Source: Naegleria gruberi (Eukaryota). Taken from it: a DNA stretch of 64,000 bases. The translations under genes were made by a program, and so were the position numbers. The notes below the pieces were generated by a model. The model did not search any database. It was given only the letters and a program-made list of their open reading frames with translations, and had not been told where the DNA came from. Positions 36,570 through 60,025 of the stretch are shown here, one piece after another (within the stretch, counting starts at the first letter, position 1; the number at the start of each line of letters is the position of its first letter). The stretch is taken from NCBI GenBank assembly GCA_000004985.1, contig GG738926.1. The stretch is one strand, 5' to 3'.

Positions 36570-36631
36570 ACAAGTGAATTTTCTTGTGCAAAACTCTGGT
36601 AATAAAATCTTTGGATGGCTCGCCACGTTTA

Positions 36632-36702
36632 CCGTCTCGGGAGGAATCGAACCTCCGTCAATGGATTCAAAGTCCACTATGCTACCATTACACCACGAGA
36701 CG
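36632..36702 (-). tRNA. tRNA-Gln (anticodon TTG)
   Basis: The reverse complement is CGTCTCG-TG-GTGTAATGGTAGCAT-AGTGGA-CT-TTG-AA-TCCAT-TGAC-GGAGGTTCGATTCCTCC-CGAGACG-G. The 7-bp acceptor stem pairs perfectly, the T-arm GGTTCGATTCC is canonical, and the sequence is close to metazoan tRNA-Gln-TTG. It sits about 60 bp downstream of the preceding gene. Confidence 0.85.
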
Positions 36703-37403
36703 AGCACATTAATTTGAGAACCTTAATGGATATTGAGGAATCAAAACAAAGTTTTCGTTGAATTCAACAACACACACATTGATGAGGGATTGACAGCTTT
36801 ATCGGATATGATGTGGATGGAATGTTGGTTGTACTTTTCCGGTAGAAGGAATTAATTATTCTTGAAGGATATTGTTAATACGGTGGTTGTCGCTTCTTGT
36901 TGAACGTAACTGGAGTGTTTAAATAATGTTGTTTTTCAAAAGATGAATCACACTCATCCACTAATTATTGTTTTGTTACCATCATCATTAAAATTCATCT
37001 CGATGCATTAACGATATTTTTTAAAATATTAAAAAAATCTTCACAATACGTCCACATATTTATTATTAATATCATCTTTGTTGTATCATCATGTAACAGA
37101 TCTACAGAAAAATTAAGGAAGAGGGATTAGAATTTTGAGAGATTCGCTATGGGTCAATCATCATGAACAGAATCTTTTGGCTCATTCGGATTTCCAACAT
37201 CAAGCATCATAGCTTTGCCTCAATAACAATGAAGAAAAGAGAGTACAAAAAAAGAAGTTTAAAGGTCCTTATGCCGCCTAATACCTCCGACTAACTAGGA
37301 AAATTAGAAAATACTAGATTAACTCTTCAAGCAACCTGGAACAATCAATCAAACAACCTAACAAAAAAAAAGATAATCACAGTTGACCTGCTCATCATCT
37401 AGA

Positions 37404-49629: not shown

Positions 49630-49916
49630 TGAAAATGAGATGAATAAATAATCTATTGATTATTGTGAAAGTTTGTAACAAACCTTTCGTTTAGTTTTGG
49701 AAATAAATGGCGGAAAGGCTTCGATATCTTTTAGTAAAATCTGCCGAGCGTTTTGTTCATTTCAATCCAGATAATTCAAATACCGGTATCCTCTTCCATC
49801 TTTATCATTTAATTCAGAAAGAAAAGTTTGGTTTGTGTTAAAGAATGCAACTGTCAGTTAGTAAGCTAATAGTTAATATTTATATTTACAAAAAGTTAAT
49901 ATTCATACTGAAATGT

Positions 49917-49990
49917 AGCCCGTCTAGCTCAGTCGGTAGAGCGCAAGGCTCTTAACCTTGTGGTCGTGGGTTCGACCCCCACGGTGGGCG
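49917..49990 (+). tRNA. tRNA-Lys (anticodon CTT); as I read it, 1 nt longer than the two minus-strand copies
   Basis: The body GCTCAGTCGGTAGAGC-G-CAAGG-CTCTTAA-CCTTG-TGGTC-GTGGGTTCGACCCCCAC-GGTGGGC-G is identical to the copies at 57051 and 59869. As printed, the 5' end is GCCCCGTC versus GCCCGTC in the other copies. Downstream T-runs (TTTTTT) look like a Pol III terminator. Confidence 0.8.
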
Positions 49991-50090
49991 ATTCTCTTTT
50001 TTCTCTTTTTTCTCTTTTGAAAAGAATAGTTTAATTTTTGGAGATATGAACTTTGCAAATATTGAGCTATTGATATGTAGCTTTTGAAAA

Positions 50091-50867
50091 TTATTCCGTT
50101 TCTTGACTTTTTTCAATTCTAATAACAGCAAAATCCGTTTTCTCTGGTAATATTTCGGCAATCTTTGTATTTTGAGTAATGTTAGAGAATATGAGTGTTT
50201 GTATTCTTGTATATGATAGCATTTTAGCAATTTCTTTCAATTCTTGCTCAAATCCCATTCCCACCATAAAATCAATATCATCCAATACAAGTGAAATCAA
50301 ATTGGAATGCATAAATCTTGTTGTACCGAATAGGTGGTCCAGTAAGCGACCTGGAGTGGCTATCACAACAGAACAACCCTTTCCAAGAGTTTCAACTTGT
50401 TCTTGTAGCGATTGAGCACCAACTAACAAACAAGAAGTTTGTGGCATAAATGTCATTAATGATTTACAAACAGCATGGGTTTGAATGGCCAATTCTCTAG
50501 TAGGACTCACAACAATAACACCTGTTCCATTTCTTGGTTTGAATTTAGCTCTATGTAATGCTTCCAGACATGGCAAGAGGAAAGCCAATGTTTTACCACT
50601 TCCAGTATTAGCTTGAACAAGTAAATCTTTACCATCCAAAGCAATTGGAATTGAATGGGATTGAACAGGTGTCATATAAGTAAAAGAAAGTTCTGATAGC
50701 GCTCTTGTGAGTGGTTCACACAAATCAAGATTAGTAAATTGGTCATCGGTTAAAAAAGTTGAATTGGATGTGTTTGTAGATATTTCTTCTTTGGCTTCAG
50801 AATTGCTGGTTTCCGATAATGATCCTACAACATCATTCTCTTCCAAAAGGTAGTTGAATGTAGACAT
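50091..50867 (-). CDS. DEAD-box helicase-like protein consisting only of the N-terminal RecA-like domain (about 258 aa)
   Basis: Real ATG at 50865-50867. It has a Q-motif (TPVQ), motif I (ANTGSGKT), motif Ia (PTRELA) and a GG. Motif II reads VLDDID rather than VLDEAD. There is no clear SAT motif and no C-terminal helicase domain: a stop follows ..[10 protein letters not shown], and no donor site or downstream exon is visible before the tRNA at 49990. Confidence 0.55.
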
Positions 50868-50975
50868 TTTTTTTGTTTTCAACTCAACTGGCTTTTAGAA
50901 AATGTTCAATGCTTGTTCTTAATCCAACCATAGCATAAATAAATATATGGTGAATATATTTCTTATGAACAAGAA

Positions 50976-51048
50976 GCTGGCGTAGCTCAGTCGGTAGAGC
51001 GTTGGTCTAATAAGCCATTGGTCGCCGGTTCGATCCCGTCCGTCAGCA
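50976..51048 (+). tRNA. tRNA-Ile (anticodon AAT)
   Basis: The sequence is GCTGGCG-TA-GCTCAGTCGGTAGAGC-G-TTGGT-CTAATAA-GCCAT-TGGTC-GCCGGTTCGATCCCGTC-CGTCAGC-A. The acceptor stem pairs (one G-U), the GCTAATAA anticodon loop is as in eukaryotic tRNA-Ile-AAT, and there is one mismatch each in the anticodon and T stems. A T-run follows. Confidence 0.75.
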
Positions 51049-56504: not shown

Positions 56505-57050
56505 CACTGGGAAGACTTCTCTATTGCCTATTATCTCTCAAAATGTAAAGACAAGAATGGGTTGAAAAATTAGCAACGAACTGAACTGAGACGAAGATCA
56601 CTTGAAATACAATCAATTAATATGCAGGGTGTGTTCTCATTCAATTCGTTCAGAATAAGTTCATTCAATTAGAGAAGGTGATACTTCCAAAATCAAACAT
56701 GGACAAGATAAGTTAGTGGATGAGTTATTGAATTCTATTAGTATGGAAAGGTTGAAATTTATCCTTGATTGCTTTTTTACAACACATCCCCAGTTGATTA
56801 ACAAAGCATTTAGTGTTTTGCATGAATCAAAGATTGAGAAGGCAGTGCCAGGTTTCATCCTTCAATAAGAGAGAGACAGCTTTGGCAGAAAGCAATGGTT
56901 GCCAAGAAATATCAAATTCTTTACTCCAGAGCATATTTATTGTGAGACTGTTCATGGAATCAAAAAGAGATTTAATCTTTAAGGGAATAAAAAGTTAACT
57001 TTACAAAAAAGATCTATCCAAATGAATAGTCGAAAAAAGTAAAAGAGAAT

Positions 57051-57123
57051 CGCCCACCGTGGGGGTCGAACCCACGACCACAAGGTTAAGAGCCTTGCGC
57101 TCTACCGACTGAGCTAGACGGGC
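57051..57123 (-). tRNA. tRNA-Lys (anticodon CTT)
   Basis: The reverse complement is GCCCGTC-TA-GCTCAGTCGGTAGAGC-G-CAAGG-CTCTTAA-CCTTG-TGGTC-GTGGGTTCGACCCCCAC-GGTGGGC-G, 73 nt with a canonical cloverleaf. Plus-strand A-runs upstream act as its T-run terminator. Confidence 0.85.
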
Positions 57124-57482
57124 TACATTTCATTAACAATATCAACTTTTTGTAAATAAAAATACTATTTTGGGTGGTGGTAAATCTCCAATATTAAGAC
57201 GTCACCTAACAATGGTTCATCAAATCAAGTTTTGGTGTGTATTGGTGGATCTAATCAATCAATTCTTTCGCACTTAATGTGGAGTTAAATTTTCAGTGAT
57301 GAATTATTCCAACTCGTTGATGGTCTCATTCTTCTCTTGCTTGGAGTCCAATCGGAACAAATGATAGCATTAAATCCGTCATTAGTTCCGTTCGCAATTG
57401 ATGTCGCCAATCCAAGGGAGTTAATTGAAATGTTTCAAGGAACCTTAACAAAAAAAGCAACAACATCAAATTCTGTTGAAAT

Positions 57483-58286
57483 ATGCAAAATAGTCTGATG
57501 AAATATTTAATTGTAATCTTGCTATTAACAATAGCTTTCTCAACAAGAAAAGTTGATGCTCTCAACACAGCTGGCAAAGATGTATCCAAGTGTTCCTATC
57601 AGAATACTGTGAAATTGGGAACAACCATGACTCTGTACTGGAATGTCCTGAAGAATCCAAGTGATTCCACCAACCACATTCTTGAATTTGGTTTAATATG
57701 CGTCAATGCAGGATATTGTGCTATTGGATTTGATCATCCTCTTGACAAGGGAATGAATTCCATTGACACCATGTTTGCCTACACAATTTCTGGAACTGCC
57801 TATTTGAAAGATGCCTATTGTAAGACCAAACATGTGTTTCCAACAATTGATGAATTGAGTGGAGGAACCAATGATTATTTGGAAACCAATGGAGGAGTCA
57901 TTGATGGTCAGTATCATTATAGATGGAGCAGAAAAGTCAATACTGGAGATTCCCAAGATGCCACTTTCAAGAATTCAAATGTCTATGTCAGTTGGGCATA
58001 TCACACCAGTTTAACTTCAATTGGTGCTACTCACTCTGAAGCTGGACAGAACGTTCAGGTTAATTTTCTTGCCAACTCACCAACAGAAACTTACCTTTCT
58101 GGAATGATTTATAATTCTTCGTCTCCCTATCCTACTGATTCTTCTAATGATTCTGTGGTAATTGGTGTTGGACACAGATATCATTTATATGCATTGGCCA
58201 TTGCGGTCGGTTCAATGATCATTCTTGGCTTGATTTGTACCTACTTGGGTTCCATCCAATGTAGTTACTCACTTTTTACTTTATAG
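57483..58286 (+). CDS. Secreted/TM-anchored DOMON-like domain protein, 267 aa
   Basis: Real ATG and a signal peptide (MQNSLMKYLIVILLLTIAFSTRKVDA). The DOMON-like core is ..MTLYWNV....ILEFGLICVNAGYCAIGFDHP...MFAYTISG.. A C-terminal TM helix follows (LYALAIAVGSMIILGLICTYLGSI). It ends only 52 bp before the ferric reductase gene on the same strand. Confidence 0.6.
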   Translation: MQNSLMKYLIVILLLTIAFSTRKVDALNTAGKDVSKCSYQNTVKLGTTMTLYWNVLKNPSDSTNHILEFGLICVNAGYCAIGFDHPLDKGMNSIDTMFAYTISGTAYLKDAYCKTKHVFPTIDELSGGTNDYLETNGGVIDGQYHYRWSRKVNTGDSQDATFKNSNVYVSWAYHTSLTSIGATHSEAGQNVQVNFLANSPTETYLSGMIYNSSSPYPTDSSNDSVVIGVGHRYHLYALAIAVGSMIILGLICTYLGSIQCSYSLFTL

Positions 58287-58338: not shown

Positions 58339-59757
58339 ATGTTCCTAGATTTGACAGTTGGCGAAATGATTGTCATTTCAGTCTATTGGGCATTGATGGT
58401 GATCTGGTTCAGTTATGGAGTTGTAAATCAAGCAGATCCTTTCATTCCAAGAAAGATTTCTTCTGGATATGTACAAATGATCATTTTGAATTACATTTTC
58501 CTGTTCATTCCTGTAACTAGATATAATGTCTTGCAAGCATTATTCGGTATTTCATTTGAAAGGTCTTTGAAATTCCACAAGTGGCTTGGTTTTATGATTT
58601 TTGGATTTGCTACTGGACATGGTGTGACGGAATTCGTTTCATTCAGAGATAACATACCTTACATGTTCTCTGCAGAGGATCAATTCCCACTATTTGGAAT
58701 AATTGCTTGGTTATCTCTTGGATTATTATTGCTCTTCTCTTTCAATCCTATTAGAAGAAAGCTCTATGAATTATTCTTAGTTTTCCACATTCCTCTAACT
58801 TTGGTCACTGTCACCTTCTCAATCATTCATGGAGAAGGTTGGATTAATTTACTTCCTTATATGGGATTTTCAATTATTTTAATGGTAATTGATTGGGCTT
58901 TGCGTTTAATTATTGGATTTGGAATTCCAACCAAGTTGACTCAGATATCATACGATGAGGATTCTGAAGTAACAACCTGTGTATTTGAAAAAAGATTCTT
59001 GACATTCTTCCATGATCCAAACCATGCTCACTATGTTTTCGTCTACATTCCACAAGTTTCCATCTACCAACTTCACCCAATGACAATCAGTTCCTCTGTA
59101 AAGCTTGAAAATGGAAATCATCAATTCATATGCCATATTAAACGAATGGAAGGAGGTACATGGGCAGCCAAGCTTGCTCAATTGGCTAAATCTAAGAAAA
59201 TGGTTTCTGAATACTACGGAGTCAGAGTGGAAGGAGCATATGGCAACTTGTCAATTCCATTCTTTGCAAAGAAGAATGATCAGAAGAGAACCATTGTATT
59301 CATAGTTGCGGGAATTGGAGCAACTCCTTGTAATGCTATTTTGACAGCACTAGAAGATCCAAAATATAACGATCCAACTCCTTATAAGGTATATGTTAAC
59401 TTTACAATGAGAAATGAGGCAACTTTGGCCCAAATGAGTAAGATTATGCAACAGAAACCAAATGTTGAATGCTCATTCTATGTAACTGGTGTTAAATCTG
59501 TGAAAAAATCAATAGAGTTAATGGAGAAGGGTCAGGATAATAGCGAAGACAAGAGATTTGTCAGAGGATCAAGACCTAACTATGTGGAATATTTGGAAAA
59601 GATCAAATCTCAAATTATTCAATCAAAATCACTTGAATATGTTTCTGTTTTTGCTTGTGGTCCATCTAAAATGATGAATGCAGTGCATAATGCTGTGTGG
59701 ACATGCAGTGATTCATCTTGCCGATTCGAGTTGCACAAAGAAGAATTTGAATTTTAA
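58339..59757 (+). CDS. Ferric reductase / NADPH oxidase (NOX)-like transmembrane oxidoreductase, 472 aa
   Basis: Real ATG. It has six TM helices with paired heme-ligand histidines (HKWLGFMIFGFATGHG ; FLVFHIPLTLVTVTFSIIHG). The FAD-binding motif is HPMTISS and the NAD(P)H-binding motif is IVAGIGATP, with C-terminal CGPxxM (FACGPSKMM). Confidence 0.8.
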   Translation: MFLDLTVGEMIVISVYWALMVIWFSYGVVNQADPFIPRKISSGYVQMIILNYIFLFIPVTRYNVLQALFGISFERSLKFHKWLGFMIFGFATGHGVTEFVSFRDNIPYMFSAEDQFPLFGIIAWLSLGLLLLFSFNPIRRKLYELFLVFHIPLTLVTVTFSIIHGEGWINLLPYMGFSIILMVIDWALRLIIGFGIPTKLTQISYDEDSEVTTCVFEKRFLTFFHDPNHAHYVFVYIPQVSIYQLHPMTISSSVKLENGNHQFICHIKRMEGGTWAAKLAQLAKSKKMVSEYYGVRVEGAYGNLSIPFFAKKNDQKRTIVFIVAGIGATPCNAILTALEDPKYNDPTPYKVYVNFTMRNEATLAQMSKIMQQKPNVECSFYVTGVKSVKKSIELMEKGQDNSEDKRFVRGSRPNYVEYLEKIKSQIIQSKSLEYVSVFACGPSKMMNAVHNAVWTCSDSSCRFELHKEEFEF

Positions 59758-59868
59758 AATTGGTTTTCTTTTTAATAAAATCACCAACATCAACGTTATG
59801 AGTACATTCCTTCAAAACAAAGCAAACAGTGTGTTAGTACAATCATATTCTAAAGCCAAAAGATAAAT

Positions 59869-59941
59869 CGCCCACTGTGGGGGTCGAACCCACGACCACA
59901 AGGTTAAGAGCCTTGCGCTCTACCGACTGAGCTAGACGGGC
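59869..59941 (-). tRNA. tRNA-Lys (anticodon CTT)
   Basis: It is identical to the 57051 copy except for one acceptor-stem substitution (G67->A), which changes a U-G pair to U-A. It is 73 nt. Confidence 0.85.
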
Positions 59942-60025
59942 TACCTTTCACATTGAATATCAACTTTTTATATCCTAAAACTTGAGTTTTTGTAATATTT
60001 TGTTTTTTATTTTATTATCACATCA

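Follow-up and report, generated by a model that had tools for sequence, protein, structure and literature searches.

In a 64-kb stretch of Naegleria gruberi DNA, analysed here at its full length and referred to as the window, three tRNA-Lys(CTT) genes are preceded by near-identical sequence that reaches up to their first nucleotide. [quoted passage not shown] A second question is attached to the first one, namely whether the gene on the plus strand is intact, since the original prediction had read an additional C in its acceptor stem.

Gene bodies

ARAGORN detected five tRNA genes in the 64-kb window, three of which are tRNA-Lys(CTT). Rfam recovered the same five genes and nothing further above its gathering scores. 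Ordered along the window, these genes are:

36631-36703, minus strand: tRNA-Gln(TTG); ARAGORN and Rfam.
49918-49990, plus strand: tRNA-Lys(CTT) copy A; 73 nt long, with an intact cloverleaf and CCA not encoded; ARAGORN, Rfam RF00005 with 66.4 bits.
50976-51048, plus strand: tRNA-Ile(AAT); ARAGORN and Rfam.
57051-57123, minus strand: tRNA-Lys(CTT) copy B; 73 nt, identical to copy A; ARAGORN, Rfam with 66.4 bits.
59869-59941, minus strand: tRNA-Lys(CTT) copy C; 73 nt, G66A; ARAGORN, Rfam with 59.7 bits.

The scores of the three Lys genes compare with a gathering score of 29 for RF00005. Copies A and B are base-for-base identical, and a pair-by-pair check of their sequence found 21 out of 21 cloverleaf pairs to be canonical. 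Copy A starts with GCCCGTC and reads GCCCGTCTAGC... from there. The 74-nt length and the extra C that had been proposed for this copy do not hold, with ARAGORN and Rfam both giving 73 nt for 3/3 copies. Furthermore, the string that would contain the extra C, GCCCCGTC, has zero occurrences on both strands of the window. The miscount is explained by flank coordinates that had been placed one base too low (49889-49916 for the plus-strand copy, the correct ones being 49890-49917), together with a gene start that falls two bases before a printed line break. The count itself is the one point in favor of a pseudogene or a sequencing error with an additional acceptor-stem C. Set against a gene of 73 nt with the same sequence as copy B and canonical pairing throughout, it leaves this explanation with practically no probability.

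A weakened acceptor stem does exist among the Lys genes, in copy C only and not in the plus-strand copy. More specifically, G66A turns the C7-G66 pair at the base of the acceptor stem into a C7·A66 mismatch, and the energy of the cloverleaf is -23.2 kcal/mol in copy C versus -26.3 kcal/mol.

All three Lys genes end in GGGCG without an encoded CCA and continue with ATTCTCTTTT(TT) or ATTTATCTTTT, so that a run of T4-T6 lies at +7 to +12 after the genes. The A box, TAGCTCAGTCGG, fits the consensus TRGYnnARBGG with one additional D-loop base, and the B box, GGTTCGACCCC, matches the consensus GGTTCRAnYCY (both consensus sequences from PMC7279448). With a predicted cloverleaf, A and B boxes, no CCA and an oligo-T run, the three genes appear to be eukaryotic nuclear tRNA genes.

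A common upstream box

The observation that a near-identical flank directly abuts position +1 in 3/3 Lys-CTT genes was confirmed. Each copy carries the motif AAAAAGTTRATATT-N5-TGAAAKGTA, referred to below as the box:

49890-49917, plus strand: upstream box of copy A (-28 to -1), AAAAAGTTAATATTCATACTGAAATGTA.
57124-57151, minus strand: upstream box of copy B (-28 to -1), AAAAAGTTGATATTGTTAATGAAATGTA; homology with copy A runs on to about 57164.
59942-59969, minus strand: upstream box of copy C (-28 to -1), AAAAAGTTGATATTCAATGTGAAAGGTA.

Compared in pairs, the boxes are identical at 24, 23 and 22 of 28 positions, versus 7.7±2.4 for random 28-mers from the window. No fourth site was found in the 64-kb window when up to three mismatches to the full motif were allowed, and the expectation from dinucleotide-preserving shuffles is 0.00 matches. 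Matches to AAAAAGTTRATATT with one mismatch at 2280, 4706 and 5620 were rejected as chance occurrences, as they lie in coding-like sequence with no RNA gene downstream.

Variation is distributed unevenly within the box. Seven of the 28 sites vary among the copies (-20, -14 to -10, and -4), and five of these seven are contiguous at -14 to -10; with 7 variable sites out of 28, a run of at least five has a permutation p of 0.005. The distal 14-nt block AAAAAGTTRATATT (-28 to -15) differs by a single transition, and the proximal TGAAAKGTA (-9 to -1) by a single change among the three copies. The degenerate consensus (G/C)(T/A)TA(A/C) that had been given for -14 to -10 describes copies A and B but not copy C, which reads CAATG. 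The block that lies farther from the gene is better preserved than the nearer spacer, which argues against simple decay or a gene-conversion gradient. The clustering of the variable sites in the spacer hints at constraint on the sequences around it.

Within the window, the box is carried by 3/3 Lys-CTT genes and by 0/2 other tRNA genes. Its absence at tRNA-Ile and tRNA-Gln, the two other genes checked, indicates that Pol III genes of Naegleria do not carry it in general. With n=3 copies, all located within 10 kb, the specificity for this family is not separable from recent common descent, nor is selection on the box separable from its youth. It seems unlikely that AAAAAGTTRATATT-N5-TGAAAKGTA serves Pol III as an upstream box that is specific to Lys(CUU) and present at most or all members of the family in N. 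gruberi, and perhaps in other Heterolobosea. We consider it quite improbable that such an element, carried by most members genome-wide, is recognized by a dedicated factor or a TFIIIB variant and provides isoacceptor-specific control. The distribution among the five tRNA genes speaks for such control, as does a 14-nt block with a single transition, which exceeds the length of a TBP site. However, the sample consists of three linked paralogues, and the homology of copies A and B past the box points to descent.

Several other flanking sequences in the window were inspected. At locus A, the distal box is present twice, 23 nt apart, within 49868-49907 on the plus strand: as AATAGTTAATATTTATA at -50 to -34 and as AAAAGTTAATATTCATA at -27 to -11. 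Copy B has a weaker form of this upstream repeat. The flank of tRNA-Ile(AAT) (50931-50975, plus strand), GTGAATATATT...TGAACAAGAA, is loosely similar by eye to GTTGATATT-N5-TGAAAKGTA in content and spacing, and this single case (n = 1) hints at a more general ATAT...TGAA layout. The flank of tRNA-Gln (36704-36745, minus strand) has no resemblance to the layout at the Lys genes. We found no published description of tRNA upstream elements in Naegleria.

Extent of the duplicated unit

The limits of the homology were determined by BLAST with a word size of 7 on each Lys gene ±300 nt. Copy C aligns with copies A and B from -28 to +10 (112 nt). The alignment between copies A and B is longer, spanning from -41/-44 to +10/+20 (127-134 nt). 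Within the ±300 nt around the Lys genes, nothing matches beyond these blocks of 112-134 nt, and no additional or partial copies of the unit are present in the 64-kb window. The sequences that flank the box and the gene bodies are:

49874-49889, plus strand: upstream homology restricted to copies A and B (about -44 to -29), AT-rich and of the TATTTAC type; from the A-B BLAST block.
49991-50019, plus strand: trailer of copy A; ATTCTC and a T-run terminator, then two further tandem TCTCTTTT(TT) units.
57041-57050, minus strand: trailer and first T-run of copy B, ATTCTCTTTT.
59858-59868, minus strand: trailer and T-run of copy C, ATTTATCTTTT; the BLAST block ends at 59858.

On the downstream side, positions +1 to +10 are identical between copies A and B. 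The matching downstream flank that had been reported for all three genes is therefore exact in these two copies, which read ATTCTCTTTT, but not in copy C, where ATTTATCTTTT differs by one indel and one mismatch.

Two additional features were seen behind copy A. Its trailer comprises three tandem terminator-like TCTCTTTT(TT) units, compared with one or two T-runs in copies B and C. The sequence at 50024-50090 (plus strand), which lies about 35 nt beyond the terminator of copy A, resembles the upstream flank of copy A joined to the end of the trailer, with no tRNA body in between. Its junction reads ...AATATTGAGCTATTGATATGTAGC followed directly by TTTTGAAAA, and the intact locus reads ...AATATTCATACTGAAATGTAGC, then tRNA and trailer, then CTTTTGAAAA. 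Tentatively, this sequence may be what is left of a tandem copy after loss of its tRNA, or it may be empty-site-like; with a post hoc p of about 0.002-0.01, it is possibly due to chance.

Outside the box, the three copies behave differently. Between -45 and -29, copies A and B are identical at 14/17 positions, which is about equal to the box (24/28). For this pair, the box shows no excess conservation over the presumably neutral -45 to -29 region, and since the similarity beyond the box is the same as inside, recent descent alone suffices to account for it. Beyond -29, copy C agrees at 7/17 positions, which is background for A/T-rich DNA, and inside the box it is diverged by ~20%. A similarity that ends exactly at -29 with only ~20% divergence on the inner side identifies -29 as a true breakpoint for copy C. 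The character states group copies A and B together to the exclusion of copy C, as ((A,B),C), a branching order that agrees with duplication in steps.

These patterns bring up a strong alternative to any role of the flank, which we regard as possible but less likely than not: the copies are young duplicates, and the flank is a neutral leftover that has simply not diverged and has no role of its own. The location of all Lys copies within 10 kb, the equally high similarity of copies A and B at -45 to -29, and tRNA-Ile and tRNA-Gln genes without the box all agree with this explanation. About 924 tDNAs have been counted in N. gruberi (PMC2888827), a number that implies rapid tDNA turnover and leads one to expect many young paralogues. 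Neutral divergence fits less well with the clumping of the variable sites and with the position of the most invariant block, which is the farthest from the gene.

Genomic surroundings

The window, part of the nuclear genome of the amoeboflagellate N. gruberi, has a GC content of about 34%, and its genes are long and intron-poor, including EGF-repeat kinases and cyclases. Copy A has a small membrane-protein ORF and a DEAD-domain ORF as neighbors. Copy B is located upstream of a ferric-reductase gene and is divergent from it, and copy C lies between the 3' ends of the ferric-reductase gene and an F-box gene. The neighbor genes of the three copies are mutually unrelated and belong to large or lineage-specific families. 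The synteny of tDNAs is known to be lost at a roughly neutral rate (PMC2888827).

Due to these unrelated neighbors and a homology of no more than 134 nt, the three loci are not a segmental duplication in the usual sense. The original prediction had offered two explanations of the flank, an upstream element for Pol III that is specific to the gene family or a segmentally duplicated unit; what stands is a small paralogous unit with a flank at the place expected for a promoter, and what falls is the segmental duplication. Three copies lying close together in both orientations could in principle result from a large segmental duplication, or from a tRNA unit carried by a SINE or a transposon. Both are extremely unlikely given where the homology stops, the unrelated flanking genes and the lack of further partial copies in the window. 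Furthermore, the three loci have no target-site duplications or terminal repeats in common. Over the flanks, the scores of all other Rfam families stay far from any gathering threshold.

Two of the neighboring loci deserve a short description. The ORF at 50091-50882 (minus strand), between copy A and tRNA-Ile, encodes 263 aa with a DEAD/DEAH helicase domain (Pfam E = 4.7e-40), and it ends before any Helicase_C domain. Truncation of the gene, a pseudogene or an intron structure that escaped recognition could each account for this. On the plus strand, about 50 nt lie between a DOMON ORF (57483-58286) and a ferric-reductase ORF (58339-59757). Both are 100% identical to one annotated N. gruberi protein of 665 aa (P0001), which is encoded on a 175-kb scaffold, and they are probably the two exons of a single gene whose intron is short. 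Another N. gruberi scaffold carries two paralogues of this protein, with 72-76% identity. The orthologous ferric-reductase locus of Willaertia magna (L001, 22 kb) contains no tRNA.

Proposed promoter architecture

In type-2 Pol III genes, TFIIIC bound to the A and B boxes positions TFIIIB over the 5' flank. At this place, copy C reads TATAAAAAG, the sequence of a canonical TATA box, at -31 to -23, formed by the box and the 3 nt upstream of it (to 59972). The corresponding sequence of copies A and B is TATTTACAAAAAG, which in comparison with TATAAAAAG is A/T-rich and not a canonical TATA; with TTTACAAAAAG, these two copies have no canonical TATA box. The position in copy C matches those of published elements of plants and fission yeast, which are TATA-like at about -34 to -29 from the mature 5' end (PMC3082873) and TATA or TA-rich at -30/-24 from the start site, itself located 12 nt ahead of box A (PMC7279448). 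The CAA start-site motif of the plant and yeast type, expected at -7 to -3, is found in none of the three copies, all of which read TGAAAKGTA.

The TATA box of copy C spans its breakpoint at -29, where the sequence that is particular to copy C completes TATAAAAAG. That copy C regains a TATA box exactly at this point argues against a flank that is only a neutral leftover, and so do the two ends of the unit common to all three copies, which coincide with the limits of what a Pol III gene needs to function.

We rate the chances as even that the Lys(CUU) genes are paralogous copies of one compact Pol III unit of ~112 bp, spread over 10 kb in both orientations by small-scale DNA duplication. Such a unit would begin at -28 and end with the first T-run, 10-11 nt after the 3' end of the gene, and would hold little beyond the needs of a type-2 Pol III gene: A and B boxes, an A/T-rich upstream stretch, a start region and oligo-T. 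The internal A and B boxes would be bound by TFIIIC. The A/T-rich stretch at about -31 to -15 is where TFIIIB (TBP, Brf1, Bdp1) would be expected, with an A-rich, ATATT-containing block at the predicted DNA contacts of TBP, Brf1 and Bdp1. Transcription would be expected to start within TGAAAKGTA (-9 to -1), which offers pyrimidine-purine steps, and to end at the T-run after the trailer, the putative oligo-T terminator. From this arrangement, we infer that the retained flank represents the portion of the promoter that comprises the TFIIIB site and the start site. The pattern of substitutions further suggests that the invariant blocks at -28 to -15 and -9 to -1 are at least partly under selection, with the 5-nt spacer at -14 to -10 drifting between them.

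The same outer limits could also be those of a primary transcript. If the sequence from -28 to the T-run were a pre-tRNA that had been copied through RNA, its first 28 nt would correspond to a 5' leader of considerable length. A three-way homology bounded by -28 and the first T-run agrees with such retroposed transcripts, and so does a pyrimidine at -29 with an A at -28 in all copies; moreover, internal tRNA promoters would leave copies of this kind active. However, a start at -28 would place box A at +36, compared with a normal position of +12 to +22 from the start site (PMC7279448). The homology between copies A and B also reaches upstream of -28, and neither target-site duplications nor A-tails are common to the copies, so that we consider retroposition very unlikely.

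Implications

On its own, the finding matters little: a false pseudogene call is corrected, and what remains is largely ordinary. As duplicates of a compact Pol III unit, the three loci would indicate that tRNA genes of Naegleria can be duplicated in very small pieces of 112-134 bp, closely delimited by the promoter and the terminator for Pol III. If the box should accompany Lys(CUU) genes genome-wide, it would be the first defined heterolobosean Pol III upstream element and a candidate promoter context for small RNAs, such as guide RNAs, in Naegleria. If it were truly specific to Lys(CUU), its 14-nt block, which exceeds a TBP site in length, would imply that Brf1, Bdp1 or an additional factor contacts it in a sequence-specific manner, and this would offer a route to isoacceptor-specific control of tRNA transcription in a deep-branching protist.

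Comparison with other genomes and known systems

When metagenomes were scanned with the first 49 nt of the tRNA, 97 loci of various eukaryotes matched. As 97/97 of these carry a TTCGAGCCCC T-arm, compared with TTCGACCCCC here, none of them is of the Naegleria type. The proximal flank together with the tRNA gave 0 matches in metagenomes, and the full Naegleria-type tRNA gave 0 matches in prokaryote genomes and 0 in viral contigs. Seven pairs of Lys-CTT genes whose first 49 nt are the same as here, each located on one contig of another eukaryote, agree at 4-10 of 28 upstream positions, with one pair reaching 16. The retention of 22-24/28 in Naegleria is therefore not an automatic consequence of proximity.

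A eukaryote from a compost metagenome (35-41% GC) provides a second family for comparison. At least 11 distinct Lys-CTT loci of this organism (L008, L010, L023, L029, L042, L044, L064, L075, L082, L092 and others) have YGGAAA at -6 to -1 and a TTCTTTTTT trailer in common. On contig L023, the flanks of tRNA-Gln and tRNA-Asn read ATCAAA and CAAGAA, and not YGGAAA. Judged by sequence, the flank of the compost eukaryote is thus a family-specific proximal flank in dispersed copies. The family resembles that of Naegleria in having the same first 49 nt and a family-wide proximal flank and trailer. It differs in extent, with about 6-7 nt over 11 dispersed loci versus 28 nt over 3 linked ones. Functional constraint by itself thus seems to maintain, as a rule, much less than 28 nt, a point that counts in favor of the flank as a neutral leftover.

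A different arrangement was seen on a metagenome contig with 53% GC (L039, 1899-2333). Two Lys-CTT genes located 362 nt apart have a distal upstream motif, TTTTTTCGGGAARTCGATTCA, in common, which starts about 55 and 57 nt before the genes, and their proximal flanks differ.

[quoted passage not shown] The Naegleria genes resemble them in that the DNA about 24-31 nt ahead of the mature 5' end is A/T-rich or TATA-like, that a short conserved block lies just upstream of +1, that oligo-T follows within about 10 nt, and that the A and B boxes are canonical. They differ in that TGAAAKGTA takes the place of CAA and that copies A and B are without a canonical TATA. Furthermore, the TATA and CAA signature of plants is general and common to all tRNA families (PMC3082873), whereas the Naegleria box is absent at the nearby tRNA-Ile and tRNA-Gln genes.

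Motifs that are restricted to one group of tRNA genes provide another comparison. Isoacceptor-specific upstream motifs are present in the 5' flanks of Drosophila tRNA-Lys2 and silkworm tRNA-Ala genes. Beyond these examples, animal tRNA genes that read the same codon have upstream motifs in common (Zhang et al. 2011, PMC3082873). As in Naegleria, genes for the same codon are alike upstream, and other tRNA families are without the motif. In contrast to the animal genes, the Naegleria genes are three linked paralogues that agree over a long stretch of 28 nt, which may be due to descent.

Finally, the three loci can be compared with the local duplication of tDNAs (Bermudez-Santana et al. 2010, PMC2888827), with which they have a high copy number, close copies with the same anticodon, and identical gene bodies in common. 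The Naegleria copies are located 3-7 kb apart and in mixed orientation, beyond the 1-kb definition of a cluster in that study, and compared with such local duplications, the duplicated unit of 112-134 bp is unusually short.
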